A DNA stretch of 63,645 nt, filler included, from Sphacelaria rigidula (GCA_964200075.2; 10 parts of 10 records of this genome joined end to end with filler, not necessarily neighbours in it); one strand, 5' to 3'; positions 1 through 62,557 are shown, numbered from the whole stretch's first letter. Numbers and translations are program-made. Notes: generated by a model not told the origin, from the sequence alone.

Positions 1-661
1 GTACACTCAGCACACTCAATACCCCGCACGCATGTACAGCCCCACCTACCCGTCACGTGTTTCATACATCCCCTTGGTTGTACTGCCAGTCAGTAGCTAC
101 TGACTCAACACGCATCGTCCCTTCCTCACGATGCAGCCCAGGAGCTCCCGTGCTCTCCATGACCCTCGCACACAAAGCCCCATTCGAATCACGATATTCT
201 TTGCCTGGGTATACCTCACATAGCAATACGCTGGGAGGCGCTCACACTGCTGATTAGCAGGTACTTAACCTCAATACTTCCCTGGTACTTGATCCCGGCC
301 CGTCTCCATACGTCTAGTAGCCCACCGGCGACCTTCACAGCGCACGAGCGCTACGGTCAGCAGACGCCTTGTCTCTTGTCAGTCCAGATGCCTACACCGC
401 AGCACTTAGGCGCCGGCCTTGAAAACGCGGCTCGCGACAACATCGCTGTTGCTTCGTTTTCTCCCCCCCCCCCTCCCCCGCCCCGCCGCCCGCCCCCGCC
501 CCGAGAAAACAAAACAAAACACAAGAAACAAACGAACAAACAAATGCACAGAGTGGTGCGCCGTACACGCCCACCCGACTTGCGGCCACCCATCTAATCT
601 CTACTTAGGCTAGCACAGCATCGGTTCCGATGCAACACAGCTCACGCCCGCCCGACCCCCT

Positions 662-882
662 GTGGACTGTACAGTACATAAAGCACCGTACACGCGCAGC
701 CCAGATAGCACCGATGAGTACATCATCACAAGTACACGGCAGGCGCGAGAGACTCCGTACACGTCCCGTTTGCCGTCGTGGACCGTACAGTACATAAAGC
801 ACCGTACACGCGCAGCCCAGATAGCACCGATGAGTACATCATCACAAGTACACGGCAGGCGCGGGAGGCTCCGTACATGTCC
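662..882. repeat. Tandem duplication, 116-bp period
   Basis: GTGGAC(T/C)GTACAGTACATAAAGCACCG...GGCAGGCGCG recurs near-identically at 662 and 778. Confidence 0.9.
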
Positions 883-2780
883 AGTGTACCGTCGCCCATC
901 CAGTACCGATTCGGGCCAAAACAGTATCGATTCGGATGCTGCATAGTTCACACCCGCCCGACCCCGTCGCCCGTACAGTACTTCCAGCACAGTCCACGCC
1001 CATCTGCCTCGGCCCTTTGCCGCCGGTACAGTACACTTGGAAGCGCAGCGCAGTACGAGCGCCGCCGAGATGCGGCACCGCACAAGTCCCCATAGCTTTT
1101 AGCCGCCTGTAGAGTACAGAGTAGGACCGGCACAAGTACACGTCCACCCAGTCCTTCGACGCCTACACAACACAGGTGGTGGCGTTAGCACAGTACATGT
1201 GCGGATGACGCGACGTACACGCCCGTACAGCCCTTACCATATAGTACACGCCCACTCGGCTCGTCCCCCTCCGCCGATACAGTACACTCCGGAGCGTAGC
1301 ACAGTACCAGTGCCACAGAATCGCGGCAGTGCACAAGCCCGCCTGGCCTTCAGCCGCCTGTCGAGTACAACCCGAGACCGGCACAAACACACACCAGCCC
1401 GGTTCTTTGCCGCCCACACAGTACAGGTGGGGGTATAACAGTACACATGGGATGACGCGAAGCACAGCACACGCTCGCTTTTACCTACGCAGCAGCACAG
1501 AGCCCTATGTTATGCCAGAAACCCGGCAAGCTAAAGTACGCTGAACCCCGACTCAATACTTGACGGTCCCATCACATACATGCCGCCCGCTCAGACGTGT
1601 TTCGTACTAGCCCAGTCAGCCCCTTTGTCCCAAGTCCGTGTGACACAGCTCATGCACAGTACTCAGCATTCGTACACGCGGCTTGTGAGCACACCAGCCC
1701 ACCACTTCTGCCACGTGAAAGCGAGGCCGCTCCAGCCTGAGCGTCCGACAGCACAACAGAATTGAAGTCTGATTTGTTAAGATAGTACAGGGTTACGACA
1801 CCCCGTTTGCGGTAGCTTCCGCCACAGGACGCTCGGGAACGCGCCGACTCTGGCCTGCACATGTCCTGTTTCATAGGTTAATAGGCGAGACATATCTTGC
1901 GTAACGTTTCCAAGAGATGGAATAAACATGAAACGAATACTGTTTGCTGCTCTGTTGCCCCGATGACGAGCTCGACTCGGGTTATTTGTACCACGCGACA
2001 CATGATGGAGCCCGGCTCGGCGACAGGCCGAACCCACCGCTGCATTGCAGCATACCCGAGCGGGAGTTTTACCTTTCCCCGCAACAGGCGAACATTGCAC
2101 ACTCTCCTCTCAAAACACCACACCCTGCGCAGCTTTCTTATGTCCTCTGTATCCTACATGTGTAGTGGAAAGAATACTAAGCCGCGCTAACCCAGTCCAC
2201 TACAGTTGACCCCAAAGTGTCATGTTCACCCTCAAGATGATCTGAGTGCCGGATGATCTGGAAAACGTCATCATCCGACATAACGCAGCCCCAATGCCCC
2301 GCCTGCAACCCTTTGAACCTTGCTTTCACTCGTGGCTTGGACGCTGATGCGCAGTGGGATACGTGGAAGCGCTCGCTTTGAGAAATATATATATATATAT
2401 ATATGTTGGATCCAAAATATCTATACATACACGACACGTCCGCCCAACGATTTTGCATTTGATTGTATGATACAGTACAGTATACGCGTCTACAGGACCA
2501 ACCAGGCCTGATAGCTTTTCTGGCAGAAAGATCCAGACGTACGAACGCGGTGCATACATAGTTTTGTACGGACCAAACGGATATACAAGGAAATCGAGCT
2601 TTCGCCCATGGCGAGTGCATGATCCAGGATCCCTCTGCGGACCAGATCCAGGAAGGCTGGGAATCAGGAGAACCACCCCAAGCCCCACGACAAGCCCCCG
2701 TGTACAGCGAGAAAGTCTTTGTTTCAGGACATCTGAGCACGGCAGTCCCGTTCTAGAAAGACGTTATTCTGAAGTACCAC

Positions 2781-4739
2781 ATGCAACCCGACTTGTTATT
2801 GTCGTGGATTAACGGTGTAGACCTACACACATTCGTCGACAAATCAACGACAGGAAGTTTCCAAGGACGCCCCTTTCACGGCGCCGACCTGACGGGTGTG
2901 GAGTTACCCAACCACTTGAACCCAGAACACGAACTGTTTGTCGACTGCGAGATCAGAAAACTTGTCGATAAAGGCTGCGCGGTGCGAGGGGCGGAGATAG
3001 CAGACGTTCACGCGCAACCCAAGCCACGCATGTCTCTCCCGCTTGGAGTAGAATTGTCGAAACCACGCTTAATATGGAACGGCCGTTGGCTGAACCTCAT
3101 GTGCAAGGATATGCCGTTCAAGATGGACGGGGTAGGAAAGGTGGCCCAGTGCTCGTGGCAAGGTGCTTACCAAGTTACGATGGACCACAAATCAGGTTTC
3201 CACCATGTACCCCTCGACCCCACATCATGGGAATACTTCGGTTTTCAGTGGGAGGGCGAATATCACGTCTGGACTGTCCTCTGTTTTGGTTGGTGCAGCT
3301 CCCCCTACATCTACCACACACTGAGCGAGGCGGTGGCACAGTACCTGCGATCCCGACAAGTACCAGTACTGGCATGGGTCGACGACTTCTGGCTGACGGG
3401 AGTCCGCTCGACCAAGCATGACCTACCTAACACGCATAAACAGGCAGCAAGTTCAGCAGCCCTCCTGGCGCTGTCAGTCTTCTATCATTGTGGATACTTC
3501 ATGTCCATCTCCAAATTCCAGCTAGAACCCACCACCAAAGTTGTCTTCTTGGGGGTTCTGTGCGACACAGACGAATGCCGATTTGAAGTCCCCGAAGATG
3601 AGCTCGCCAAGTTAGAGCGCATCTTAGACGATGCCCTCGCTACCGGAACCATCACGTTCACCATGCTTGAGAAGCTGGCGGGCAAGTGCACGAGTATGTC
3701 GGTTGCAGTACCAGCAGCCAGTTCGTACACGTTCCACATGTACAAACAGATCGCGGTATATAGAAAGACAGGAGGAAAACATATCACAGCTACGGTAGCG
3801 CTCTCTGCCAATGGTGGTCTTCGAAACGAGATAGCCACATGGCGGGAACTCCGAAACAAAATGAATGGGGCGGCACGGTACAGCCCCATTCACCACATCA
3901 TCGCCATAAACGGCGCGACAGACGCATCCTCACTGGCATGGGGGGGTATTGTTCGAGGCCCCTCTGGCGTCACCTTTACAGCGGCCGCCGACTTTCCCGC
4001 CGAATGGGTGACAGCGCACATCAATGTCAAGGAAATGTTCGCTCTACACGAAGTCCTTAGACTGTTCTGCTTAGAACAAGCTGATCAAGTGGCGGGGACT
4101 AGTCCGTCAATAGATGTCGACGACAAAACCATGTACCATGCCTTCAGAAAAAATAAAGCGAGGGACGAACGCATGCACACACTCATCCAACAGCTCTTCT
4201 GGATGCAAGTCAGACAAGACTTCACACTCACATTACGATGGGTAGACTCAAAGAGTAACTCAGAAGCAGACCGTCTTTCAAGACCAGGAGCCAACGAGCA
4301 CGTGCGACTGAGAGCAGAATATTTTGACCAGTTATGGTTCGAGTGGGGCGGGTTCGACATGGACTTGATGGCATCCACAGCGTCAGCCCAGAAGATTCCA
4401 TTGAATGCACCGGGTGGAGGAACTGCTCTGCCTTTTTACTCGAGATACCATACAGCAGGATCACACGGAGTGAACGTTCTTAGCTATGACGCTAGTCGCT
4501 CGTCATGTCGCACGCAGCAATGCTTCGGATTTTGTTCCCCCCCCCCAGTGACGGTTGAAGTAGTGCTTCAGCACATCGCAGATTGCTACGCCCGTGCGGT
4601 GGTAGTGGTTCCAGCGCGACCAGCGTTGTGGTATCCTATGCTTACTGAAGCAGCCGTACGTACCAAACTCGTCTCTAGAAAAGGGGAAAATAGGCAGTTT
4701 TTCGTACCCACCATCAACGAGGACAGGAAGCGTTCGTAA
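2781..4739 (+). CDS. DIRS pol: reverse transcriptase-RNase H-adenine methyltransferase-like domain
   Basis: RT motifs DHKSGFHH, LCFGWCSSP, AWVDDF. RNase H motifs TDAS, HINVKE, SNSEADRLSR. MT-like FDMDLMAS...FYSRY...FCSPP...VVVVP. The frame continues upstream (VFVSGHLSTAVPF*KDV) through a TAG at 2754-2756. Confidence 0.92.
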   Translation: MQPDLLLSWINGVDLHTFVDKSTTGSFQGRPFHGADLTGVELPNHLNPEHELFVDCEIRKLVDKGCAVRGAEIADVHAQPKPRMSLPLGVELSKPRLIWNGRWLNLMCKDMPFKMDGVGKVAQCSWQGAYQVTMDHKSGFHHVPLDPTSWEYFGFQWEGEYHVWTVLCFGWCSSPYIYHTLSEAVAQYLRSRQVPVLAWVDDFWLTGVRSTKHDLPNTHKQAASSAALLALSVFYHCGYFMSISKFQLEPTTKVVFLGVLCDTDECRFEVPEDELAKLERILDDALATGTITFTMLEKLAGKCTSMSVAVPAASSYTFHMYKQIAVYRKTGGKHITATVALSANGGLRNEIATWRELRNKMNGAARYSPIHHIIAINGATDASSLAWGGIVRGPSGVTFTAAADFPAEWVTAHINVKEMFALHEVLRLFCLEQADQVAGTSPSIDVDDKTMYHAFRKNKARDERMHTLIQQLFWMQVRQDFTLTLRWVDSKSNSEADRLSRPGANEHVRLRAEYFDQLWFEWGGFDMDLMASTASAQKIPLNAPGGGTALPFYSRYHTAGSHGVNVLSYDASRSSCRTQQCFGFCSPPPVTVEVVLQHIADCYARAVVVVPARPALWYPMLTEAAVRTKLVSRKGENRQFFVPTINEDRKRS

Positions 4740-6275: not shown

Positions 6276-6375
6276 NNNNNNNNNNNNNNNNNNNNNNNNN
6301 NNNNNNNNNNNNNNNNNNNTTAATTAATTAANNNNNNNNNNNNNNNNNNNNNNNNNNNNNNNNNNNNNNNNNNNN
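6276..6375. other. Artificial contig spacer
   Basis: N44-TTAATTAATTAA-N44, stops in all six frames. Confidence 0.99.
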
Positions 6376-12650: not shown

Positions 12651-12750
12651 NNNNNNNNNNNNNNNNNNNNNNNNNNNNNNNNNNNNNNNNNNNNTTAATT
12701 AATTAANNNNNNNNNNNNNNNNNNNNNNNNNNNNNNNNNNNNNNNNNNNN
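12651..12750. other. Artificial contig spacer
   Basis: N44-TTAATTAATTAA-N44. Confidence 0.99.
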
Positions 12751-12938
12751 ATGTTGGGCGAAAGGAGCGTGGATCGTATCGCATCATGTCTGCTACATCG
12801 TTTCTACAACTGTGTTTCGCATGCACGTGGACGGAACACAGTGTCGCAGGACATCAACGGGACCCGGACTGGCACTATCAGAGGGAGTTCGGCTATCGGC
12901 CCTGCTTCCGCACACTAGGACGCGTTCAAGAGGCTCAC

Positions 12939-13010
12939 CGCTGAGCTGGTTGACGTTGAGGTTAAGAAGCCGCAGGTTCTTCAGTTTTCCCAGCGACGAC
13001 GGTATCTCGC
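12939..13010 (-). CDS. LRR exon GEIPSSLGKLKNLRLLNLNVNQLS (LRR receptor, possibly ROCO-type)
   Basis: CAG acceptor, GTGAG donor, 72 nt, phase 1/1, 24-aa plant-type LRR consensus. Confidence 0.93.
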
Positions 13011-13202
13011 CTGCATGTTGGGCGAAAGGAGCGTGGATCAAATCGCATCATGTCTGCTATATCGTTTCTACAACTGTGTTTCGCCTGCACGTGGACGGAA
13101 CACAGTGTCGCAGGACATCAACGGGACCCGAACTGGCACTATCAGAGGGAGTTCGAATATCGGCCCTGCTTCCGCACACTAGGACACGTTTGAGAGACTC
13201 AC

Positions 13203-13274
13203 CGCTGAGCTGGTTTTGGTTGAGAGAAAGCTTCTGCAGGTTCTCCAGTTGTCCCAGCGACGACGGTATCTCGC
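13203..13274 (-). CDS. LRR exon GEIPSSLGQLENLQKLSLNQNQLS
   Basis: CAG/GTGAG, 72 nt, phase 1/1. Confidence 0.93.
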
Positions 13275-13467
13275 CTGCATGTTGGGCGAAAGGAGCGTGG
13301 ATCATATCGCATCATGTCTGCTATATCGTTTCTACAACTGTGTTCCGCCTGCACGTGGATGGAACACAGTGCTCGCAGGACATCAACGGGACCCGGACTG
13401 GCACTATCAGAGGGAGTTCGGGTATCGGCCCTGCTTCCGCACACTAAGACGCGTTTGAGAGACTCAC

Positions 13468-13539
13468 CGCTGAGCTGGTTGTCCATGAGGTTAAGAAGCC
13501 GCAGGTTCTTCAGTTGTCCAAGCCACGACGGTATCTCGC
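13468..13539 (-). CDS. LRR exon GEIPSWLGQLKNLRLLNLMDNQLS
   Basis: CAG/GTGAG, 72 nt, phase 1/1. Confidence 0.93.
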
Positions 13540-13731
13540 CTGCATGTTGGGCGAAAGGAGCGTGGATCAAATCGCATCATGTCTGCTATATCGTCCCTAC
13601 AGCTGGGTTTCGCCTGCACGTGGACGGAACACAGTGTCGCAGGACATCAACGGGACCCGAACTGGCACTATCAGAGGGAGTTCGAACATCGGCCCTGCTT
13701 CCGCACACTAGGACGCGTTTGAGAGACTCAC

Positions 13732-13803
13732 CGCTGAGCTGGTTACCGCCGAGGGAAAGACGCTGCAGGTTCTCCAGTTGTCCCAGCGACGACGGTATCT
13801 CGC
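13732..13803 (-). CDS. LRR exon GEIPSSLGQLENLQRLSLGGNQLS
   Basis: CAG/GTGAG, 72 nt, phase 1/1. Confidence 0.93.
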
Positions 13804-13961
13804 CTGCGTGTTGGGCGAAAGGAGTGTGGATCATATCGCATCATGTCTGCTACATCGTTTCTACAGCTGTGTTCCGCCTGCACGTGGACGGAACACAGTG
13901 TCGCAGGACATCAACGGGACCCGGACTGGCACTATCAGAGGGAGTTTGGCTATCGGCCCTG

Positions 13962-14222
13962 TAATAGATAGCCTCATGCACCGGGTGCGTTGTAATACCT
14001 GGGAAAAACGCTCATACAAAATGACATGTCATAATCCCAGATTTTCGGCACGCAAAAAGGCGTGTGCCGCCACAGCAGATATGCACTGCAACCACTACAT
14101 AGGGTATACCTTAAATAACAGAATGATATCTTATTCGTATTTCCCCTGCACGTCATGATCCAATCTCCATATCTATTTCCTTCGTATGCAGGCAGATCCT
14201 GGAGCGTAAGTATAATCGATTA
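13962..14222. mobile_element. MITE inserted in an LRR-array intron
   Basis: Absent from sister introns. Flanked by duplicated CCCTG (13957-13961 and 14223-14227; a 3-bp CCT reading is also possible). Ends are TAATAGAT and ATCGATTA. Confidence 0.85.
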
Positions 14223-14261
14223 CCCTGCTTCCGCACACTAAGACGCGTTTGAGAGACTCAC

Positions 14262-14333
14262 CGCTGAGCTGGTTGAATACGAGGAAAAGATGCTGCAGGT
14301 TCTCCAGTTGTCCCAGCGAAGACGGTATCTCGC
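14262..14333 (-). CDS. LRR exon GEIPSSLGQLENLQHLFLVFNQLS
   Basis: CAG/GTGAG, 72 nt, phase 1/1. Confidence 0.93.
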
Positions 14334-14400
14334 CTGCATGTTGGGCGAAAGGAGCGTGGATCATATCGCATCATGTCTGCTATATCGTTTCTACAACTGT

Positions 14401-15145
14401 GTCCGTTTTAGGTGCAGGGTGCGCATTAGGTGGTGTGCATCTGACGTAGCAAGCAGTATGTGACGCAGTAGAAGGCTTCCTCCAAGATGCGGCGACCGAC
14501 GGGCCGCCCGTCACTCGTGGCTTTGGATGATACTATTGTCCACATCACCTTGTCATACAGCCCTTTGTGGTCGGGGCGGGCCGCCTTTCCCCGTTTGTTG
14601 CGTGTGGAAAATTCTCTTCGAAGGGTATCAGCGCTGCGGTGCGCATACATACAACAGAATAGTCAATGTTTTTCAACCCTTTTGGGGACCGAACCTCCAG
14701 AACGGCCAATGAGGCCGGTGAGGAATGGCGTGTCTCGCGTCTCAGCGAAACACGGAAATGTTGCTGAAAACCGGCGGATGTAACTGCAGGGTTACGACGA
14801 AGACCGAAAGTTTTATCCAGTCTGTTTCCAGGTGCAGGGTGCGCATTAGGTGGTGTACATCTCAAGTAACAAGCTTCCAACAAGATACACGACCGGCGGG
14901 CCGCCCGCAACTCGTGGCTTTGGACGATACTTTTGTCCCCATCACCTCGTCATACAGCCCTTTGCGGTCGGGGCGGGCCGCCATTGCCCCCTTCGTTGCA
15001 TGCGGCAGTTTCTCTTCGAAGGGTACCAGCGCTGCGGTGCGCATGCATACAACAGAATAGTACAGTACCCTGTGGTACGCCTCTCCGACTGAAGCAGCAG
15101 CTGCCGCTGCATACTACCTTGCACGTTTTGGGTAATTCTCAGCTA
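14401..15145. repeat. Dispersed repeat, partially tandem (about 420-bp period)
   Basis: AGGTGCAGGGTGCGCATTAGGT at 14410, 14830 and 30396, with colinear downstream sequence. Confidence 0.85.
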
Positions 15146-18100
15146 CCGATACTAGCTGCCTTTGTACCGCTTTCTCATCCCCGCCCATTGGTCAACTTAC
15201 GACGTCAAGGCTACTCAGAAGACAGCATAAAGTCGTAAGCCCACTTTTGCTGAAGCCACATGGCACCGGAGCCTCCTCCATGTCTTTCAGTGCACCAAAC
15301 CGTCCAAAAATGCGCGTCCGTTGTATCGGTAGCGGTGGGTGACGAACGGCGGTTTGTTTTCATTCCCTCTTGGAACACGATATCCCAGGAGTTCGATGAA
15401 AATCGTGCATATTCATGAAATGAAAAGGCATACCCATGGAACAACAAATACACCTGCACAGGGCGAGTCATTCATCCGCTAGAATTGTAGAACGATGGAC
15501 ATGACAAGAAAGTCGACCAACATCCGCCCAGCCAACATGACACACCCGGCGAATGTACTCCACTTGTCCGTGCAAGGACCGTCCTCTTCGTAGTTGATCA
15601 GTACATTTCGTTCTGTCGCTTATTGAGCATACGATTTTGTAAAAATGAATGGTTCAGCGTTCCCGTTTCAGGCGTTGGGCTACAAATAATCATGGTTCAT
15701 ATTACTCCGTTTGAATGTGTACAAGAAGTGGATTTCAAGTAGCACTGACAGTCCCGTGGGCTCCTCGTATGAGCAGAACGTGTTTTCGTTGAAATCCGCG
15801 CCACAGGCGTCCTATCCACAGCCGTCCTTGCCCGAGAGTTCTCGGTGTGCGTTGGGTTGGATCAACCCAACTAGCCTCCTGGCATTCCAGCGTATCGTGA
15901 GCATGGACGAAAAGCTACGCAGTGGCATCCAGCACATGTGGAACAACAACGGAAGTAACGGTAGGATTCTGTATATGAATTTTGGATCCATGTCGTTCTC
16001 TTCCGGTGACGTTGGGCATATTTTACCCGACGAGCCTGAATAAGCCCCAGAAGTCGATATGTTCGTTTTTTTTTTCGTGATTTTGGTCGTTGACACTTTT
16101 TTTGCCCAGTTTGGGGGTCAGGCGCACCCATAACTGTGTTCAAGTTTCAATACTTGCGGTGGGAAATGTTTTGTACCACTGAGACCATAGTACGGTTTTA
16201 CTGTTGTCTGTAGTACAAGTGTGCACATGTCTACTTGTGTTCGTTTGCATACTTCCATACTTGGAGACACTACAGTTGTTCTCGATGAAGGTCCACCATA
16301 TGCAGTAATCCTAGCTGCGGAAAGGCGAGAGGGGGAACGGAGGAACACCTGTCGACCGGGCCCGATACGACGTGCAAGGCCTGAAGTGCGCCACCCATGC
16401 AGCCGCTACGGCGATCTCGAACGAATGGCCACCCAACGGTGGTGTGACTGCGCGAGCTAACGCAAGCTTCACGTTAGGTTGCCAGTTCAAGTCCTCTTGG
16501 CAGCTGCTTGAGCGGCCGACTCACGCACTATCGCATCATCATGAGCCAGATCAACTGGTGTCTCGGCTTCCCCGTTCTCTTTTGAGTGTTGCTTGTAGTT
16601 ATGGGTCACCCTTGTGAACGAGCTGCCGTCACCAATGTCGTCACAGGTGTTCACGACATCCGCCACCGCCTCATTCATGATATTTGTTCTGTAACCTTGG
16701 TCGTTATAGGGCAGGGTGTCTAGTTCCGTTTCGTAGTCCCGAGTTTGACACCAGCGCTTTCGGATGTGTAGCACCTCCGGTTTTTTTTTCCAAGGAGGAA
16801 ATTAATCATGAGTTGCTGAGAATGTCTCTTCTCAGGGGTCAGTTTTCAGGGTTCATCCAAGGGGAATTCGTCACATCCTGGCCTTATTCCGAACTTTCTC
16901 GACAGTCCCCGAGTTTTTCCTCATCACCGAGATCTGATTTGTGTTTCCGAAACCCTCTTTTGTGATGCGGGGAGGACCGCGTGCACTCGAGACCGTTTCG
17001 GAATCATCACACACTAAGATCAAAATTTCCCAAGATCATCGGGGACAGTCCCCTCAGGACTCTGCCCCTGACTCTATCGCGCACCCCAACCCTCGACGGT
17101 GTTGAAACTTGGACGCGGTCTGAACAGCACACGGTCCTTCGGCCAACAGCACACGGCCAAGTCCTCCCGAGAGTAGTCATGGCAAAACAGATGAAACCGT
17201 CAATCACTTGGTGCCAGCTTTTCCCGTAGACTCCATCATCGCGACTTCATCAACCGCCTCCCAAACGAGTTTGATTGAAACAGTGACTGGTTTGTTCAAT
17301 ATATGTTCGTACCTACCAGCAACCTGTAATGCGCGGGGAACGTTACTCCCCGCTCTTTGATGGAAATCCGGGATTGGACGGATCGCGCACGCACCAAGCC
17401 ATATTTTTGGGTGAGCCTCGAATTCTCCCGTCGATATTCTGCCGGAGATTCCGTGGTGTCGGGCGGTTCATGTTCCCTCGCCCCCTCGCCCCCCTCTCTA
17501 CCCGCCCCTTTGTTGGCGGAATTCACTGGCCCCATGCAGACTGGACATCACAAGATGTGTACAACGTATTTCTTTGGAATGATCTTCAAACACATCACAC
17601 CCGTTCTGTACAGACAGGCACCACCACGCAAGCCCGATGACAAGCTATATCAAACTTTCCGGTACACCAGGGTACACGCTGAAATCGGAACACCGGCTTT
17701 ATCGGAAAGTTGTTCGATGGTACGGCTACAGACAAGTTGTACGACGTATTTGCGGCAGCGTCGCATCAGGCCCGCGAAGTGTAAGGTGGCCCCACCTAGG
17801 TGGCCCTGGATATCGCCCCGGGAGGGCCGCGGAAGTAGAATTTCGGGGATACAAGCAAATATTTCATTGGGAAATTACGTGACAGATAAGAGCACACGGT
17901 GAAATTGATGTCCATTTCACAGACCGCGCAGCTCGCCTGCGAGTAGTAGCTGTCGAAGGGTGGAAATGGGCGCTGGCGTCAAGAACAACCGTTACCTGGG
18001 TATTTGAATACATTCACCGTCAATATTTTGCCGGCGCAAACGCTCGACTACATCGTGTTCTGGATGGTGGAGGGGAAAATGATGTCCATCCAGTCGTCGA

Positions 18101-19025
18101 GACTCTGGGCGATTGTGGGCACTGCTCCGCCACGATAGCAATTATCTTCCTGTATGAAAAAGTCTTGGGAGCAACCCAAATTCCGGAATCACCACATGCT
18201 ATGTTGCTTAAAAAACAGCCGTGTTGAACAATACAACAGTAATATCAAAAGCTTTCAGCGGGGTTTATGCCCCTACATCATTTACCTTAGACTGCTACGA
18301 AGAGCGTTCGCAAGGCGCTGCGGCTTCCTCACCAACGCAGCAGAGTGAAGGGAGTACAAGGAGTATTACTGCTCTACGCTTCATCGCATGGCCCAAATCG
18401 AACGCAAAACTCAACACGACTTCAGTGCGGAAAAAAGAAGGGGGCCGGGGGGCAATATGCAAGGCGATTTCGTCGGAAAATGAAAAGAGAGGGCACTCGA
18501 ACACTAAAGTTCTTCTCACGAATTCGCCGGCTGCGTGCTGTGCGCTCAATAAGCGGAACCAGCAAGACTGAGGCTGTAGCGGAGAAAAATTGAAGAATTA
18601 GGGAACCCTCGGATGTTCCCGGGTTCTCAACTGACAGTACGCTGGAGTTAGACCCCGCGTTCTTTTCTTAGAGCGAGGAGACAGGGTACTGTTTCACTAT
18701 TCCTGTGAACTCACCTGTTGTGTGTCGTTCGGCGTGCTCGGCTACCCGGTCTTTTTCTCGCTGAAGAGAGGCAGTGCTCTGGCAGGTTATGCGTCCAGAC
18801 ACAGAGGACCTGGCGATAGACGATGAAACTTGATGTGTGTGTGTAGGTTGAAGCGCAGGTGTAAATATTACAACAGACGGTGACGGCGACCCAAGATGTT
18901 TTGAGCGTTGCGTGGGGTGAAAAAGGTAGTGGTGAACACAGGGCCGGTCAATTGAACACGGAACATTCAACATTCCTGCAATTTCCAATGACAATTATCG
19001 TAGAGTATACGATATCAAACGGGCG

Positions 19026-19125
19026 NNNNNNNNNNNNNNNNNNNNNNNNNNNNNNNNNNNNNNNNNNNNTTAATTAATTAANNNNNNNNNNNNNNNNNNN
19101 NNNNNNNNNNNNNNNNNNNNNNNNN
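19026..19125. other. Artificial contig spacer
   Basis: N44-TTAATTAATTAA-N44. Confidence 0.99.
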
Positions 19126-27038: not shown

Positions 27039-28268
27039 TCATGGTACGTTAAAGAAACCAAATTCCGCCGGGTCGAGGCTTGCTACAAAAGTATTGGTAT
27101 CCGCGTAATCCTCTTCGGCGACCTCCTGTGTCTTACCCCTGTGTCGCTCCGGTCGCGTTGTTTGCCCAATATACCGACTCGCAACCCGGCTCGACTTCCA
27201 TCCAATCTGCGCCATGACTGTCGCCACATCCTGGCCCGCTATGGTGCGCGCTACCGCCGCCCCCACCCGGAATGAATGCATCGTAAAATTTCTATCCCCC
27301 AAACCCGCTCGCTGGGCATGCTCCTGCAGTCGCGCCGTCATCGCCCGCGGTGTCATCGCGGTATCACACTTTGCCAACTTAATATCACCTGTCCTCCGTA
27401 TCTCGGGGAAAAGGAAACCTTGGCTTACCTGCCAGCCGCATGACTTCATGGCCTGCGCATATACTTGTAGCGCCGCTACTGCACACGTGTCAGGCATATC
27501 CCTGTCTGGGGCTACGTGGCATACATGCCGCGAACCCTCCCTCAGCGTTTTGGTGAAACGGAAGTTTAAGACGATACCCTGATCCTCGGGCAGCCGTAAA
27601 ACACTTCCTGCCATCATTTGCGTCAAATCTCCTCCTCTACCCGCCGTACGCAAAGCCACCGTGAACAACGCCATATCCCTGACTAAAGCAATGGACTCCG
27701 CGGGGTTTTCAGTTCCTGCTAACTGTATTCTGATAGCTGCGACAATCGCGGCTAGGTCCGGCAGTAGCAGCGGCCTGGCTTGCTTTGTCGCCACACCCGC
27801 CTTCTGCTGCTCTGCGGCCGAGAATGCTAAGTATTCCGTCACTGGCACACTCTTGACCGGATTACCTCGGTGTTCTGTGACGGACCAGTCGTCGCTGTTA
27901 GCGAGGATCTCCGTATACGCACAGCGCAGTTTCGATATGTACTGTTTATTTAGCGAAGTATGTGCATACCGCTTCGCGCACCCGAGACCTAGCTCTTTGC
28001 ATTGTACCAAGCTGTCTGTGCCTATCTGTGGGCATTGCAGAACGTGCACTACCTTTGTACCCGTGCCCTGCGAGTCCTTGTATGCCAGGTAATTTACGAC
28101 TTGCTCTGGCGTGGCATTTTCCCATCCTACGGCGCCGCCCGAACGCTGTCGCATGAAACGGTCGAAATCATCTGCTACGACACTCTTACGCCTATGCCCC
28201 ACTTTAGCCGCTCTTGCTGCGGCAAACGCCGCCAGCCTGTCATTAAGCAAACTGTCGTTGATATGCAA
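27039..28268 (-). CDS. ALOG domain-tyrosine recombinase, uninterrupted
   Basis: ALOG: YLAYKDSQGTGTKVVH..QC...C...CAKRYAHTSL...ISKLR.AY...GNPVKS..V.EYL...EQQKAGV. YR catalytic set: R (AGRGGDL), K (FTKT), HSFR, W (IGWKS), Y (SRYI). Confidence 0.93.
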   Translation of the reverse strand: MHINDSLLNDRLAAFAAARAAKVGHRRKSVVADDFDRFMRQRSGGAVGWENATPEQVVNYLAYKDSQGTGTKVVHVLQCPQIGTDSLVQCKELGLGCAKRYAHTSLNKQYISKLRCAYTEILANSDDWSVTEHRGNPVKSVPVTEYLAFSAAEQQKAGVATKQARPLLLPDLAAIVAAIRIQLAGTENPAESIALVRDMALFTVALRTAGRGGDLTQMMAGSVLRLPEDQGIVLNFRFTKTLREGSRHVCHVAPDRDMPDTCAVAALQVYAQAMKSCGWQVSQGFLFPEIRRTGDIKLAKCDTAMTPRAMTARLQEHAQRAGLGDRNFTMHSFRVGAAVARTIAGQDVATVMAQIGWKSSRVASRYIGQTTRPERHRGKTQEVAEEDYADTNTFVASLDPAEFGFFNVP

Positions 28269-28304
28269 TTGGGCCTCCCCTTGCGGTCGCGGTGCCGGCC
28301 GCGT

Positions 28305-30234: not shown

Positions 30235-30725
30235 CCCTTGAACCCTTTTGGGACCGGGCCTCCAGAACGACCAGTGAGGCTGATTGGGAATGTCGTGTCT
30301 GGCGTCTGCACGAAACAGTGCTTCATGTTGCTGAAATCCGCGCATGTCACCGCAGGGTTATGAGGAAGACCGAAAGTTTCGTGCAATTTATTCTCAGGTG
30401 CAGGGTGCGCATTAGGTAGTGTGCATCTGATGTAGTAAGCAGTATGGGTCGCCGTTGAGAGCTTTCAACAGGATGCGGCGACTGGTGGGCCGCCCGCTAC
30501 TTGTGGCTTTGGATGATATTATTGTCCCCATCACCTTGCCACATAGCCCTTTGTGGTCGGGGTGGGCCGCGATTTTCCTCTTTGTTGTATGCGCCGAATT
30601 CTGTTCGAAGGGTATGAGCGTTGCGGCGCGCATACGTACAGTACAGTATAGTGCAGTACGCCTCTCCGACTGCAGCAACAGCTGCCGCTGCATACTCCCT
30701 TGCACGTTTTGGGCAGTTCTCAGTT
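30235..30725. repeat. Dispersed repeat, same family as 14401-15145
   Basis: Colinear similarity. Confidence 0.85.
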
Positions 30726-33255: not shown

Positions 33256-33768
33256 ATCTCCTGTTTTGTTTTCCGCTGACTTCACAATTTGAGGATTTTT
33301 TTCACGGGATTGAGGTCGAAGACGATCCCGTCCGTCTGATTCGCGACTTGAGCTCAGATGTTGGTGTCTGTAGGGTAAATGATTACTCTTGACGAACTTG
33401 ACGTCGTAGTTGGGGGACATTGCCAACCAAAATGCATTGGTGTCGAATATACTCTTGATCTCGTTGGTGCCGGTTCTTCGTAGCTGTGACTCACACGAAT
33501 TGTTGAGGGTTATTATGGATTCGTGTTCGCCTCCTGTTTTCTCCTTTCTGGAGTTTTACATTCTCTTTCACTAATTGAATTTCGTGTTCCTTCCCCTCTT
33601 TTCTCAAGTGTAAATACTTTTTATCTCCCTTCTTGGTGTTCCTCTTCTCTCTGCGGTTGGTTTCTTCGAGCAAGGTCTTTGCGAGTATCTACATTGGAGC
33701 GTTTATCTTGTAAGGGCGGCTGTGACGAAGGAATTCATATTTATTTTGTGTGTGTTTTGTGTTGGCAG

Positions 33769-33923
33769 GCGGTTAACTCATTGAAGGATATCTTCCCGGA
33801 GCTGGTGGATGCCTCGAAGCGGGTGATGGACGTTCTTCAAGACGAAGAAATGACCTTCAACCGAACTCTCGACAAGGGATTGAAGGAGTTCAACAAGATC
33901 GCGGGGGGGCTCGGAGAGGTCAA
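33769..33923 (+). CDS. AARS: Alanyl-tRNA synthetase, internal exon
   Basis: AVNSLKDIFPEL...VLQDEEMTFNRTLDKGLKEF. CAG acceptor; the AA|GTGCGT donor gives phase 2, matching the next exon. Confidence 0.9.
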
Positions 33924-36083
33924 GTGCGTTGTTATGGAACTGTGTTCCTATAAAAACATGAAAGCCCCTTTGGCCGACTCCTTAAACCTCGCGGCATATA
34001 CCGGAACGTTCACTGCCATGAAAACCGAGAAAGCCGAGTGGGCAAACAAAATCACAACTGAGCTATCAAAGGTTGAGAATGTTGCACATGTGGCGCGTGG
34101 AAATCCCTTTTTGGCTTTATGACCAAAGAAAGGTGGGTAGGGTTGCGTTTCCACATGACCGAGGCAAGTCGGCTTGGAGCTCTTCTCCCCGGAGTGATAC
34201 AGTACCCTGCACTCCCCGCCGATTTTTTAGGTCACAATGCGGCATCGTCGTTGTTTCTGGGGACAAGAATATTTTCTCACAATTGTTTTCGAGCCTAAAA
34301 CAGATTTGTTTCAGTCCAGGCAGCGTTCAGGCATGTATAGTTTCATCTCTTCCGGATGATAAGATAGTACAGCCACGATGTCGTGGGAATAAAACAATAG
34401 CATGCGTAGCACCACCATTTCCCCCATCTGAAGATTTCATGGGTAAGGGTCTTGAAAAGTGTACCTTCTTGCCTCCTTGACACGATAGTCATGAAGCAGC
34501 CCCTCTTTATACATTTTCGGTGGTGTTTATGTTTAGCTCCCGCTCGTTTAGTGTTCGGGATTAATCCTTCATAGCTTCCAAGCGTAGCTTTGCCTTTTCA
34601 TACCCAAGTTATGGTTTCTAGATTTAAAAAAAAATGCCCTGTTTAGGCTTGAGCATAGATGAGTGCCTCTCGCATATGGCGGACTCAGCAAGAGCTCCTC
34701 ACGTAATGATCAGCTTTGATCAGCAGGGTGTGAAGTTGATCGCCGGACTGGAAAGTCATGGCATCATGCCGATACTCAAAAGCCATTTTGAGTCGGCGCC
34801 CACGTGACGCGAGACCAAACGCAACGGCGCGTACGTGGGGTTCTGAATATGATGCAGTAGGTGGACCGACATGAAATATCCCTTCATACAGGTGTAAGGT
34901 ATGTTTATTTTCCGGTACACCGAAACATGCCGATAGAGTGGTGCCATATGTCGGGTCCGTGAGAACGAAGTCTGGTAAGCGGTGTGAAAATGTGAAGTAT
35001 TATTTATTTCTGAATGCACCCCTGCCAAACTATACAAAGCTTCACCTTGTTTTGTTTTTGTCACACTTTTTACCCTCCCCCCCTTCCTCGGGAAGAGCCC
35101 ATGGTGGCAAGGGATCAACCCATCTCTCCCTGGTACACGCCTTGCATTCTGATCTCGCGGATTGGGTCATGACTATCAGCACTCTGGCACCGCGTCAACT
35201 CAGTCAACTACTTGATGTTTAGCCACGTTCTCACCCTTTCGAGAGTGGGGGTGAGATACTTGTACCAATTACCCAACGCATCAGGAATCAAACTCACACT
35301 CTCTCCACCCCGAAGGCGATAGTCGGACCATCACACCACCGACGCGCAGCTGTATGTTGGTGTATCCCCGACAGCAAGGGATTGTTGCGTTATCACTGCT
35401 TATTTAGGTTTTGACGCGTCACGGCAAGATGTGCCCATGTGCGATGTTAGTCGTGGCTCATAGTGGTGCATGACACATGTCATGGGCGTGGCACGGCTTT
35501 TTGATCCCCAACCCACTTCATTGCTATGTATCGTGCCCCCGGTACAAGTGCTCGTTGACCGTATGGTACGGCATCGTCTCCTGCTTGTGTGTTGCTTGCA
35601 CGAATACTCGAATGCTTTCCGGTAGAACGTCTCAAGTATTGCGGAAAAATGATGTGATGCGAGCCTTGAAAAACAGCTGATGATGGTAACAGTGCTGCGA
35701 TTTTTTAGGGAAGAAGGCGTTTTATCTATGCTGTCCCTCTCTGTTTCATACCTGGAACTCCTTCCGTTTCCCGGGGAGAATAATCGATAATCTCGAGGTG
35801 TCAGTCAACAGATGTCTTCACCGGTACCTGTGCTTGCCTGCTCTACTAGGGAACATGGGATGAGCACTTCGACAGCCGCTCGACTTTCACTCGCAATGTG
35901 TTGCCTGTGAAACGCTGGGGTAGAAACTTGCGCGTATTTTCCGCGAAGTATCGATCGCGGTTGGGCTGTACAGATCGCCATCGCCCAAATTCCATGTTCC
36001 CGGGAGAATGCTCTCCTCACTTATTTGTTCTATATCGGTGCGCATCACTCTGTGTGTGCGTCTTTGTGTCTCTCATATGGCAG

Positions 36084-36168
36084 GGTTTTCCCCGGAGCTG
36101 ATGCGTTCAATCTGTACTCTTCGATGGGGTTCCCGCTCGACCTGCTCACCCTCATGGCTGAGGAGAAG
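36084..36168 (+). CDS. AARS: Alanyl-tRNA synthetase, internal exon
   Basis: VFPGADAFNLYSSMGFPLDLLTLMAEEK matches the AF.LYDTYGFP.DL motif. CAG/GTAAT. Confidence 0.92.
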
Positions 36169-37376
36169 GTAATTTCACGCAGTAAACATCCCGCCCACGT
36201 GTTGTATGTACCCCATCCTGGTTGAACACCCCGCCTGTGCTCAATTTTAGTTCAACATTAATTGTTTGTGATGAGGCGCACTGGTGATTCACAAAATGTT
36301 TTTTTTACAGTGTTACCAGTTGCATATGTTGCGGTGATGAGCAAAACCAGCATAACTGTGTGCGCGATATGCGAAATTTCATCACCACATAGTACAAAAT
36401 GATCACGGGGTCATGGGCTGAGGAAAAAATATTGGACTTTTTGGATGCAATCGTTGTGTTCCGTAAACGAGATTTTCAATTTTTTGTGTCATGAACCCTT
36501 TCGGAAGCCATTGGCGATTTTTGCTTTTGTGAATCCGCATCATTTTCGGTCATTATCAAGTCAAAATGATCCCGATGCACGAAAATAAAAATCGTCAGTG
36601 GGTTCCAAAAGGGTTAGGTATGTACTTCTCTTGGTATAGAATGCAACAAGATGGTGTTGTGTGGCGACGGCCGAAAATTACCCGCCTGATTGAAGGTTTA
36701 CCACTGTTCTATATTCCACATTCCACTGCACGAGACAGTTTCGGGAAATGAAGGATGAAGTACAGCATGAGGTAACCAACCCACCAAGCAAGATCCCAAG
36801 GTTGTGTTCTGTATGGTATACTGGCTTGCATTCGGATATTCACACAAGTACTGCTCGTATTATTAGGGATACATTTTTCCGAGTAAATGCCCTTACAAAC
36901 TACATCAAAAGGTTCGGTACACATTAAGTAAGTCATGTTCGGTGTGCCAACCAAAAATCCCCCGTTTCTTGGAATACCCCGTAGAACATCACCTTTCAGA
37001 ATTCTCTTTTGTCTAGTCGATCGGTAAATACTTGCAAGAGTTTCCTGTTGTATATCAGTTCATCCATTAATTTGTTGTTAGATTAGTGTTGGTAATTGGT
37101 TCTAGGTTGTTGTTTTATGTTTTCACCTGCACTTCCGCAGGAAAGTCGAGTGTTTGTGGTTACAATATCACACTCCATGTCTAGCTAGCTGTACACCAAT
37201 GTATGTATGTATATATATGGTCTTGGCCCCCAATCGCCACTCGTTGCTTCCTTCACTCTCTTTTGCTTACCAGACACCCAAGTACTTGTCGTTGATCCCG
37301 ACGCAAACATGCGCCCGTTCGTCGTCGAATCAATTAGCCTCATTGTTTTGTCCCTTCCTCGTCTCTCGTTTTTCAG

Positions 37377-43094: not shown

Positions 43095-43133
<39 letters not shown>

Positions 43134-55672: not shown

Positions 55673-57271
55673 TCAGGAGTGGGTATCAAGAGTGTGATCA
55701 GCGGGATTCAAAGGGGTGTGCACGCCAAGACCGGGCGCAAGATTTGAAAACTTCGCCGTGCCAAGATTCCTGCGTTGGTGTGCGAAGACGCGCAACGTGA
55801 GCCCCCCACCCGATAGCTGCTGGTCCAGCTCGTAATATGTACAAGCTGATATCTTCATCCTACTCTACGCGGAGTGGAAATCATATACTCCTCCATGTCA
55901 TTTGAATGCAGCCATTGGTCGTTGTATACTACTGTCTGCAAACTAACACCTGCATGCTATGCTGCTGTATGCGGCAGTACAGACATAACTTCACTTCCTA
56001 GTATTGTCTGCACTGCACGTTGTCCACATCATATCTAGTACAGCCCTTGTACGCCACTGGTGCAAACTGACATCTGCATCCTACTGTTGTATACGGTAGA
56101 ACAAGCCGTGTACGGTCTCAAAACTGCACGATGTACACATCATTTTCAGTGCAACCGCTGTATACTGCTGTGTGCAAACTGACGTCTTCGCCCTACTATT
56201 GGATGCGTTAGAGCAGACACTACAATACTGCCTAGTACTGTCTGTATTGCACGTTGTCGGCACCTTTCACCTTGCCCGTATCGCTTTTACTACAGCCGCT
56301 TTTGTGCTGTTGCGGGAAACCTGACACCTACATTTTATCACGTGGGGCAGCACAGAGAGTACAGTACTGTGTTGTCTGTGCAGCATGTTTTATACAGCAC
56401 AGTTGATGCCAACAGATCATCGACACCTGACGCCATCCCGCGTGCACCAGGATGGCGAGGTAAAGCCTGTTCCAGTGTGTAAACGGCGCTGGTGATGTTC
56501 GACATCGAGAACCCCGCAGATGAGGGAGAAGGGCACAAACATATTCCATGCTGATCTCCTGTAGGGTACGCTGGCAGGTGTATGCAAACGCGTCGTCTTG
56601 ATCGAAGAACACGATTGAAAAATACAACTCGATCTCGGCTTGTATTTTTGGAGAGTACGAGCCGGGAGTGCTAGTCTCGTAGAAGTTTCCTCCTGTCGTA
56701 TTTTCTCTCTGGGATTCTTGTGAAAATACGAACTGTAAGAAACGATCGATCTGGAAATCTGCTATTCGTGGGGCGTTTTTTCGTCCGCCATATTTGACTA
56801 CGGATTGAATCAAAAGATAGAGTGGTTCTTGCAGTAGTCGTTGGCACATTTTCGCGCTGGTGCAAGGAAGACGCGACAGGGAAACGCAACACGTACACTC
56901 CAACCCCCGAACAAATACTCAACAGCATCCGCCACAAACGCGTATCAGTCAGCTGTGTCGGACAATCGAATTCAGCGCGTGACCTCTTTACACGGAAGCA
57001 AACTGTGTAGAAAATTGTGAAGTATGGTTCGTGTTCAACGTCCTCACTTGGGAGCAAGCTGGAGCAAACATTTTCTTCGCCGGAGTTTCAGACTGGTTGA
57101 ATGTGCTTCATGCAGGGGCCATTGATGATTTAGTGGGTATCCTCTTCGATGGAAAATGGACACACGTAGCAGCAGTCGCTGTCCCCCCCCCCCCCCCCCC
57201 CCACCCCCCCCCCCCCCCCCCCCACCCCCACCCACACCACCCACCCCACACAGCACCCCCCCACCCCCCCC

Positions 57272-60700: not shown

Positions 60701-61996
60701 GACGTATCTGCAGTTGATCAGGAACAGCATGACGACACGAACAACTTCAACATAAATATTTACGATGCTATAGCTCAGCTAGAGGACAACACCACGGAGG
60801 ACAATTCACCGATTACAGGGCCGCCTATCGCCCAAAGAAGGTTGCGTTCAGCTGGCGGTCCCAATCAACATCCTCCTGGACCTATTAACAACGGGCAAGC
60901 CAGCGAACTAAAGCGACTAGCCTTAATGTTTTCTGGGGGTCAGCATGCTGCAGCAACATTGGAAATGGTATGTCAGTACATATTCACTGTCGGAGTTGAA
61001 CAGGTTGCACCATCCGCGTCACTTACAGTACCCACCAACTATCGACAGGCATCGACTTCACTATACTCGAAGAAATGGAAAACAGCCATGCTGGAAAAAC
61101 TTCAAAGTATAAAAAATCATGATGTAGCCGATATCATCTCGGCCAGCTCTCTTCCCAGCAACAACAACATCATCGGTACAAGGTGGGTCTTTAAGGTCAA
61201 AGCAGACGGGCGTTTTAAAGCTCGGTTGGTGGTTCAAGGTTAGTCTCAGAGGCATGGACTCGACTGCGGGAGTACTTTCGCTCCAGTTTGCAGGTTAGAA
61301 AGTCAGCGATTGTTACTGGCAATTGCCACTGCGAAAAACTGGCCTGTTTTAGCCCTTGACGTACAAACTGCTTTCTTGAACGGCAAGCTACAGGAAACAG
61401 TATTCTGCAGACAACCGCCTGGCTTCGAGACGCTCGACCCAACGACAGGAGAAGCACAAGTGATGCGTCTTAAGCGCGCGCTCTACGGACTGCGCCAGAG
61501 TCCAAACGTGTCGAACGTTACAATGGATACGAAGCTGCGGAAAATGGGTTTTTCAGCCACGGCAAGTGACCCATGTGTCTACACGAAAGGATCCCATGAG
61601 GGATATATGATGCCCACTCTGTATGTAGATGATGTCTTGATGACAGGACCGTCAATCAGTATACTGCAACAGGTTCAGGATGCACCGAAGTCAAGATTCT
61701 CCATCCCCGAGCTAGGACCACTTTCTCTTACTCTTGGTATACAGGTCATCAGGGATGAAGCGCGAGGAACTCTCAAGTTGTCACAGCATAGGTACGTAGA
61801 ATCAATGCCCAAGAAATTCGGCATGGTGTCATCCAATCCAGTTCACACGCCGGGAACACCAGCTCAACTCGTCGGCGGCGCGCCTGAAGATGCCTTCCTG
61901 GAACCGTCAGAGAAAACTAAGTACCAAGCGATGGTCGGGGGCCTCATCTTCCTGGCTCAGAGCACAAGATTTGACATCGCATTTAGTGTCTCCCAG
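57785..61996 (+). pseudogene. Copia gag-pol with many stops and frameshifts, RNase H missing
   Basis: CYTCGRPGHQARDC knuckle; VDSGSTGH protease; WHRRLGH...CVTC; STDLTGP, TDRGGEY, QQNGISER integrase; FKARLVVQG, LDVQTAFLNG, ALYGLRQSP, LYVDD RT. Homology stops at RFDIAFSVSQ. Confidence 0.95.
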
Positions 61997-62218
61997 GATA
62001 TTTATCTTCAGCATCATCGTCAACGCTAAAACCTCGATCACCATCGCCAACGCTCAACTACTATCATCACCTTCGACGCTCAACTTCGTCGAGTGTTATC
62101 ACCCAAGCGACATCTCGTCCGTCCCAAGGGCACCACACTATATCAATTCTCAGCCCCTAACATTTTTTTTCCAAAATCCAACCTTCAGCATCCTCCATCT
62201 TCACCACTCACCATCAGA

Positions 62219-62557
62219 ATGAGCTACCGCGATAACACCCACCACAACGGAACCAGGAACGCACGCAGACACGTCGCACAAAACTCAGCATCCCATGGCC
62301 GCGCACACCGCACTACGCACCGCCATAGGCCACAATACGGGGTGACGCCCAATGCACGGGCCCGCCTGAGTAATCAACGACTACGACTCCAAGCACGCGC
62401 GACGACCTACATCGACTGGGGAGCGCGAGCTTCTATTTGTCTGGACATCCTCATCCCAGGACAGCAAACCGAGGAGCGTGCACGTATGGCGGACCCGTTC
62501 AGGACGTACGGGTTCACCGATGTTCAAGAGTACCCCAGTGATCTTGATTTGTTTTAG
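62219..62557 (+). CDS. Unknown 112-aa Arg/His-rich ORF in the copia 3' region
   Basis: ATG-initiated open frame with no recognisable homology. Confidence 0.3.
   Translation: MSYRDNTHHNGTRNARRHVAQNSASHGRAHRTTHRHRPQYGVTPNARARLSNQRLRLQARATTYIDWGARASICLDILIPGQQTEERARMADPFRTYGFTDVQEYPSDLDLF

Follow-up and report, generated by a model that had tools for sequence, protein, structure and literature searches.

A tandem array of 72-nt leucine-rich-repeat exons in Sphacelaria rigidula with variation focused on four codons of a near-identical scaffold

Five tandemly arranged exons of 72 nucleotides (nt), each encoding one leucine-rich repeat (LRR), lie on the minus strand of a 63,645-nt stretch of Sphacelaria rigidula DNA (GCA_964200075.2; the whole stretch is the window referred to below). 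Their introns and the framework of their coding sequence are near-identical, and within an 18-nt patch of each exon the differences fall only in codons 15, 17, 19, and 20, the positions for which positive selection has been reported among the "type I LRR exons" of brown algae. An earlier note on this DNA, made from the sequence alone, had drawn attention to the packed substitutions and to an A-B-A-B order of exon and intron types, from which it deduced a recent duplication of about 529 bp. We put at about 0.7 the probability of a joint reading in which the locus is the LRR-domain part of a candidate receptor gene of brown-algal type, assembled from type I LRR exons, and in which exchange of repeat units, with concerted evolution, is combined with diversifying selection on the four ligand-facing codons.

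Under this reading, units consisting of an exon and its upstream intron would multiply and exchange by unequal crossing-over or by gene conversion between misaligned repeats. Such exchange would keep the introns and the exon framework near-identical, a condition described as concerted evolution or "high internal conservation" (HIC), and diversifying selection would drive or retain amino acid change at residues 15, 17, 19, and 20. These residues are the x positions of LxxLxLxxN and would line the concave, ligand-binding face of a putative receptor, a function predicted from the sequence. The A-B-A-B order would be a local dimer pattern arising from such unit duplications. Selection is the probable cause of the variation, its timing would be germline rather than somatic, and the new codons may have arisen in place or come from paralogous exons.

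Array anatomy and its match to type I LRR exons

The window joins ten pieces of 6,274-6,275 nt by linkers of the form N44-TTAATTAATTAA-N44, and nothing was read across the linkers. These occupy 6276-6375, 12651-12750, and 19026-19125 and then recur every ~6375 nt, cutting features at piece edges. The array occupies 12751-14402 of piece 3 (12751-19025). The preceding linker ends at 12750 and the array starts within an intron at the first base of the piece, so it is cut there. Tandem Repeats Finder reports a period of 264 over 12751-13961 (4.6 copies, 91% matches, score 2028), and a further, interrupted copy lies at 14222-14402; the spacings of the repeats within the array are 264, 265, 264, and 530. 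The features, in plus-strand order, are as follows.

12751..12938, minus strand: intron I0, b-type, aligned with the other introns; 188 of 192 nt present, cut by the start of piece 3
12939..13010, minus strand: exon E1, A-type LRR, (G)EIPSSLGKLKNLRLLNLNVNQLS; hypervariable patch 12952-12969
13011..13202, minus strand: intron I1, a-type, 192 nt; differs from I3 at 6 of 192 nt
13203..13274, minus strand: exon E2, B-type LRR, (G)EIPSSLGQLENLQKLSLNQNQLS; hypervariable patch 13216-13233
13275..13467, minus strand: intron I2, b-type, 193 nt (one additional base), from the intron alignment
13468..13539, minus strand: exon E3, A-type LRR, (G)EIPSWLGQLKNLRLLNLMDNQLS; hypervariable patch 13481-13498
13540..13731, minus strand: intron I3, a-type, 192 nt, from the intron alignment
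13732..13803, minus strand: exon E4, B-type LRR, (G)EIPSSLGQLENLQRLSLGGNQLS; hypervariable patch 13745-13762
13804..14261, minus strand: intron I4, b-type; intron-like at 13804-13961 and 14222-14261, with a ~260-nt piece of a high-copy repeat inside (13962-14221)
14262..14333, minus strand: exon E5, B-type LRR, (G)EIPSSLGQLENLQHLFLVFNQLS; hypervariable patch 14275-14292
14334..14402, minus strand: b-type remnant of intron I5, with 0 differences from I2 in 69 nt; homology stops at 14402
14403..15100, no strand assigned: high-copy dispersed repeat that contains a ~400-nt duplication, closing the recognizable array on the gene-upstream side

Each exon encodes one 24-residue plant-type LRR, and all five translate to (G)EIPSSLGxLxNLxxLxLxxNQLS. 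Exon borders are GT-AG in all five (donor G/GTGAG, acceptor CAG/), and every exon is open in frame, with consensus residues and splice sites intact. The first two nucleotides (GC) and the last one (G) of each exon are parts of split GGC glycine codons, so that the exons can be joined in any order without breaking the reading frame. The array introns are 192 or 193 nt long. A motif and six-frame scan of both strands of the window found no LRR exons other than these five on the minus strand.

These properties are those of a published exon class, known from brown-algal ROCO (LRR-Roc-COR) genes and other LRR genes. In the accessible text of Zambounis 2012 (PMC3341825), the Ectocarpus "type I LRR exon" is 72 nt long and encodes one LRR with the consensus GxxPxxLxxxxxLxxLxLxxNxLx; positive selection acts at residues 15, 17, 19, and 20, which lie on the concave face, and omega averages ~5.9 at selected sites; intergenic recombination is also described. 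For four brown algae, Teng 2024 (PMC11378527, as far as accessible) gives exons of 72 bp in which nt 3-71 code for 23 residues, with selected sites 14, 16, 18, and 19; these correspond to residues 15, 17, 19, and 20 of Zambounis 2012 because the later numbering starts from nt 3. LRR-only loci with such exons are proposed as a possible reservoir (PMC3341825; PMC11378527). In the array described here, all five exons have this length and a single LRR, and all five carry G1 (in the split codon), P4, L7, L13, L16, L18, N21, and L23. The phase is symmetric in every exon, with nt 3-71 coding ("phase 2" in GFF terms). Variation among the five exons likewise falls on residues 15, 17, 19, and 20, against 0-5 differences in 60 nt elsewhere in the exon.

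The array also departs from the published picture. Its introns are 92-97% alike and its units form an A-B dimer pattern, and neither feature is discussed in the accessible parts of PMC3341825 and PMC11378527. The strings "conversion", "unequal", and "homogeni" are absent from the accessible text of the former, and "gene conversion" from that of the latter. In the literature searched we found no analysis of intron homogeneity against hypervariable codons, or of gene conversion, in brown-algal LRR exons; subscription papers and supplements may hold more. The peptides NQLSGEIP, EIPSSLG, LGQLENL, and NQLSG were not found in the searchable supplements of PMC3341825 (part of the files) and PMC11378527. 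Piece 3, which holds about 1.65 kb of array, shows no further LRR exons, whether intact or inactivated, within introns or on the strand opposite the coding one, where their presence is the published sign of exon shuffling. Among the 147 open reading frames (ORFs) of at least 100 amino acids (aa) in the window, none matches Roc, COR, kinase, or NB-ARC domains; any Roc-COR side of the gene would fall below the cut at 12751.

Four hypervariable codons on a conserved scaffold

As the earlier note had counted, exons E2 (from 13203) and E4 (from 13732) differ at 9 nt packed into an 18-nt window, coding nt 42-59, and all nine lie within codons 15, 17, 19, and 20. This amounts to 9 differences in 12 hypervariable (HV) nt, compared with 14 over the remaining 450 nt that align in the 529-nt unit (Fisher p = 7e-11). 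The pattern extends to all 10 exon pairs: within the patch only these four codons differ (3-10 of 12 nt), with Leu16 (CTT in all five exons) and Leu18 (CTC in all five) identical at each of their 6 nt. The other 54 exon nt show 0-5 differences per pair, and 0-1 among the three B-type exons. We also compared 181-nt units (U1 to U5, each comprising 40 nt on the left, the exon, and 69 nt on the right), in which the non-HV part of 169 nt differs at 4-12 positions (2.4-7.1%) over the 10 pairs. For the B-type pairs this range is 2.4-4.1%, and 7-10 of their 12 HV nt differ, at or near saturation. The contrast between HV codons and the rest gives Fisher p values of 1e-5 to 8e-12 in 9 of 10 pairs and 0.054 for U1-U3.

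The kind of change differs as well as its density. The ratio of transitions to transversions is 23:54 inside the HV codons, near that of unrelated sequences, and 64:26 outside, these pairwise counts not being independent; the 16 biallelic intron sites comprise 13 transitions and 3 transversions. The near-identity of the introns points to recency or homogenization rather than constraint, because the intron part of a distant copy is about half identical and the introns match nothing in Rfam at E up to 1 and do not fold unusually (z = -0.10). With four codons near saturation and the surrounding 169 nt only a few percent apart, the packed substitutions are not ordinary neutral point mutation since a recent duplication, a point on which we agree with the earlier note. 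Nor are the HV patches simply old haplotypes spared by homogenization, because the contrast is too large and the codons of Leu16 and Leu18 are untouched (chance 0.029 given the exons' own Leu usage); they are codon-scale change on a young scaffold, of a kind that strong selection following duplication can produce. The "very strong selection" that the earlier note had offered as one option is how the variation of precisely these residues in brown-algal type I LRR exons has been explained in print, and in the present locus we infer it from the pattern itself.

A second option raised there was templated micro-conversion, in which tracts of 6-18 nt copied from other type I LRR exons, acting as a cassette reservoir, would be the main source of the patches. 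Among B-type units the patch is indeed decoupled from its flanks, and there are half-patch mosaics: E1 and E3 share codons 15-18 and differ in 19-20 only, and E4 and E5 differ at 2 nt in codons 15-17 and at 5 of 6 nt in codons 19-20. A related organism (organism A, below) has many variant copies, and the accessible text of Zambounis 2012 (PMC3341825) describes intergenic recombination and proposes LRR-only loci as a reservoir. Against this, no donor for an 18-nt patch is found in the window at up to 2 mismatches, a weak test in a window with only five such exons, and 9-nt sub-patches give only chance-level additional matches, bar the codon 15-17 stretch common to E1 and E3. Paralogue contigs similar in sequence to E2 and E4 depart from these exons one base at a time in codons 15, 17, 19, and 20, as stepwise substitution would also produce. 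It also counts against micro-conversion that tracts so short, regularly respecting codon borders, are not a known property of meiotic or mitotic gene conversion. We consider it an unlikely main source of the patches.

The third option was targeted mutagenesis, that is, a programmed change of the four codons, possibly somatic, by an adaptive-immunity-like diversifier such as was hypothesized for brown algae in 2012. In its favor, change is confined to four codons and the interleaved Leu codons are untouched even at synonymous sites. The hypothesis is in print (PMC3341825), and the accessible text of Teng 2024 (PMC11378527) treats it as unreported, not as disproved; by the same account, reports of somatic recombinant loci, of recombinases, and of clonal immune cells are lacking. 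The HV differences carry no mutational signature and are near random, the adenine-specific pattern expected of a diversity-generating retroelement (DGR) fails, and no known mechanism spares alternate codons. Somatic change, moreover, cannot be shown by any single assembly. Of the explanations considered here this is the least credible, and we rate it as very improbable. A more general proposal, that a dedicated brown-algal diversifier rewrites only codons 15, 17, 19, and 20, sparing the interleaved Leu codons down to their synonymous sites, via very short templated patches taken from LRR exons across the genome or via codon-targeted mutagenesis, perhaps somatically, appears to us improbable; if it were true, this array, with scaffolds 93-98% alike and four codons randomized, would be its footprint.

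Several observations weigh against unit exchange with diversifying selection, the explanation that we prefer. The HV codons are near random on a scaffold that differs by a few percent, and selection would have to be very strong or be aided by imported ready-made variants. The invariant Leu16 and Leu18 between scrambled codons leave room for a codon-scale process. The array is cut at 12751, ends in a repeat at 14403, and is accompanied by no Roc, COR, kinase, or NB-ARC domain, and it could be an LRR-only "reservoir" locus or a fragment. [quoted passage not shown] Selection is read from five exons in one assembly; no independent contig bridges a whole unit, and the exon order is that of the assembly.

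Unit order, independent data, and surrounding sequence

By translation, the exons alternate between a KNLRLLNL type (A; E1 and E3) and an ENLQxLxL type (B; E2 and E4), with E5 again of type B. The introns alternate in step: I1 and I3 carry the variants GGATCAAATC/CCCGAACT, I2 and I4 carry GGATCATATC/CCCGGACT, and I0 has GGATCGTATC. In these respects the description in the earlier note was accurate, including its count of 6 differences in 192 nt between the sister introns 13011-13202 and 13540-13731. The plus-strand order of typed units is b(I0)-A-B-A-B-B, the fifth unit breaking the A-B-A-B order. Intron type pairs with the exon on its left, which places each intron upstream of its exon in gene orientation.

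The recent ~529-bp duplication finds mixed support. Units two apart are the most alike (95.5% and 93.0%, against 89.1-92.4% for the others, with 230-264 nt compared), but over the 169 non-HV nt U5 is as near to U2 as U4 is, and U1 and U3 are no closer to each other than units of different type. The non-HV differences are 4 of 169 for U2-U5 (3 of 40 on the left, 0 of 69 on the right), 5 of 169 for U2-U4, 11 of 169 for U1-U3, and 8-12 of 169 for cross-type pairs. Three full and one partial diagnostic intron sites set I1 and I3 apart from I0, I2, and I4, and the A/B split is contradicted by 3 of the 7 intron sites that are informative. With two equiprobable types, five typed units would alternate by chance with a probability of 0.06. 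The case for a single recent 529-bp duplication is weakened in that it is not uniquely supported, and the A-B-A-B order is no proof of one clean event. The alternation is real but short, and repeated unit-level exchange fits it better than one clean duplication; the mosaic relationships of the units, seen both in the conflicting intron sites and in U2-U5 relative to U2-U4, are as expected from repeated exchange.

Sixteen public sequencing runs share words with the array (best 0.30), and four of them (X1 to X4) were aligned at a likeness of at least 90%. Independent contigs match 13779-13863 (85 nt) and 13781-13900 (120 nt) with 0 differences, across the E4/I4 junction. In organism A the unit is multicopy: at one exon site, as many as 16 distinct contigs have a different letter. 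The seven variant sites listed in E2 and E4 comprise five in codons 15, 17, 19, and 20, one at the third base of Leu18, and one at the third base of codon 9.

These data bear on the possibility that the array is an assembly artefact, a chimera of near-identical 264-nt units, or else a dead fragment broken by repeats. Such an origin would agree with the lack of an independent contig bridging a full unit, with the 0.30 of sampled words held by the best run, with the high-copy repeats that interrupt (13962-14221) and flank (from 14403) the array, and with the lack of any other receptor domain in piece 3. Misassembly may reorder units, but it cannot create the contrast between HV codons and scaffold inside single 72-nt exons, and the exact matches at the E4/I4 junction come from independent runs. 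A dead fragment is at odds with open frames, consensus residues, and splice sites in all five exons. We judge an artefact or dead fragment to be improbable.

Read depth hints weakly at splicing and expression of exons of this family. In runs X3 and X4, only guessed to be RNA, depth in the exon bin 13201-13275 is 14091 and 10233, compared with 18-82 in adjoining intron bins, a contrast of about a hundredfold; in the DNA-like X1 and X2 it is 2380 and 5150, compared with 292-3289 in introns, and the contrast is inconsistent. A 98-nt contig covers an A-type exon only, and its ends do not match the introns. None of the runs is listed as RNA, and some bins, 13501-13575 among them, are uncovered in X1 to X3; we give neither point any weight.

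At the protein level, an 84-aa read-through ORF of the array was compared with longer proteins and gave one informative relative, P0002, and several non-algal LRR proteins; it has no match among proteins of similar length. P0002, itself a read-through ORF in a public contig, is the distant copy mentioned above. Its exon-coded part is identical at 20 of 25 residues and differs at residues 11, 15, 17, 19, and 20, and its intron-coded part is about half identical, as counted on alignments. A search of the full protein library returned 17410 matches ranked by repeat number; none of the 18 top matches scanned has Roc or COR, many have bacterial-type domains, and the search is uninformative on ROCO membership. 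A pattern of the exon ends has no match in either metagenome or viral contigs (0 loci in each). A looser pattern of 18-nt exon end plus splice donor gave 58 metagenome loci, which we attribute to chance, as BLAST likeness covers only 21-32 nt around the pattern.

The plus strand of the array carries two ORFs, 12752-13444 (231 aa) and 13224-13961 (246 aa), with summed Laminin_G_3 E values of 2.4e-9 and 2e-4; no single stretch passes. We rejected plus-strand coding, as these ORFs are probably a by-product of the stop-free 264-nt (88-codon) unit, broken by the 1-nt indel in I2.

Two repeats adjoin or enter the array. The insert in I4 (13962-14221) is a very-high-copy repeat of organism A, with a depth of 2e4-9e4 in bins 13951-14250, compared with 1e2-8e3 in the LRR bins of X1 and X2; it has loose ends at 13993 and 14226, where other copies diverge, and no convincing terminal inverted repeats. 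The element at 14403-15100 starts exactly at the end of I5 homology, reaches a depth of up to 5e5, and has copies of 76-83% at 30238-30681, in another piece. In other copies of the family, contigs join LRR introns to this element at other points (13079 to 14564, 13897 to 14774; short sides, of low weight), and it may often sit in such LRR introns.

Elsewhere in the window, a 660-aa open frame at 2757-4736 (plus strand; RVT_1, E 3e-9) is a retroelement, and 58187-62554 (plus strand) is a Ty1/copia-type retrotransposon spread over several frames (gag, zinc knuckle, gag-pre-integrase, SH3-like, and RVT_2, E 2e-48). A 421-aa open frame at 27042-28304 (minus strand) matches Phage_integrase (tyrosine recombinase) and ALOG, both near the Pfam cutoff, a combination that we take to be typical of DIRS/Crypton-like elements. 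Two alanyl-tRNA synthetase exon pieces lie at 33490-34119 and 35911-36222 (both plus strand), with identities of ~34/47 and 26/32 in the exon parts. All three named matches among their four are to brown algae (Scytosiphon and Ectocarpus), which would fit a brown-algal host if the pieces share one genome, and the identities suggest a brown alga not identical to these two genera. C runs occur at 43097-43131 (35 C) and at 57183-57271 (89 nt, C rich, ending at a piece edge).

Comparison with known systems

Brown algae represent an independent origin of complex multicellularity, and their pathogen recognition has been deduced from genomes only. The locus itself adds no new mechanism. It is a compact example of brown-algal candidate-receptor architecture, with five exons in 1.4 kb and introns as alike as the exon framework, and its opposition of a homogenized scaffold to four randomized codons is sharper than in published averages. 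It also offers a convenient amplicon for the somatic diversification hypothesis of 2012. With the known type I LRR arrays it shares one 72-nt exon per LRR, the consensus, the phase, and the variable residues of the concave face, and it differs from them in lacking LRR relics on its noncoding strand.

DGRs limit variation to a few binding-surface codons, at template adenines, and have an adjacent reverse transcriptase. A likeness exists in the A-rich codons AAC, AAG, and CAA of E2, all of which are changed in E4. With E2 as the template, adenines account for only 6 of the 9 differences in E4 and 5 of the 10 in E5, and for E1/E3 the figure is 2 of 6 at most; we rejected DGR-like adenine mutagenesis. 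Piece 3 contains no template repeat and no reverse transcriptase, the sole RVT_1 ORF being in another piece, and the host is a eukaryote.

Lamprey VLR genes assemble LRR cassettes somatically, in a gene-conversion-like manner, from an incomplete germline gene. The analogy was cited by Zambounis 2012 (PMC3341825) in its accessible text. It extends to LRR modules with a conserved framework, variable concave-face residues, and the idea of a donor reservoir. In contrast, the present locus is a germline array of ordinary spliced exons with intact GT-AG borders, and neither an incomplete germline gene nor a cassette architecture is seen in this one assembly.

Plant resistance-gene LRRs are of the same subtype (NxLSGxIPxxLG), and they too pair conversion with selection at xxLxLxx. 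In the coffee SH3-CNL cluster, according to the accessible part of the report (PMC3113787), Ka/Ks exceeds 1 only at the x residues of xxLxLxx, and there is conversion between paralogues. Plant resistance genes mostly do not have one repeat per exon, and their within-gene repeats are far more diverged than the 93-98% likeness found here.

The pattern also has a parallel in the HIC repeats of fungal NLRs. They differ from the array in fold (WD40, ANK, or TPR versus LRR) and in kingdom, and fungal repeats lie inside one exon, whereas here the repeat is the exon and the homogenized unit includes a 192-nt intron. Repeat-induced point mutation, a proposed fungal mutator, is not known in brown algae. 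In the fungal repeats, for example the WD40 repeats of Podospora HNWD, the accessible text of PMC13449251 reports 80-100% identity and, in each repeat, exactly four hypervariable positions located on the binding surface; the proposed causes are unequal crossing-over or concerted evolution and ectopic conversion, together with diversifying selection, and repeats are gained, lost, and shuffled. In the words of its authors, there is "a sort of weak HIC" in the receptors of brown algae. HIC is recognized by about 80% or more nucleotide identity and a few hypervariable surface positions, and in the present array the units are 89.1-95.5% identical, with four hypervariable codons. In sharing near-identical repeats with four hypervariable positions in each, this locus ties the brown-algal case to the high-internal-conservation paradigm of fungal NLRs.

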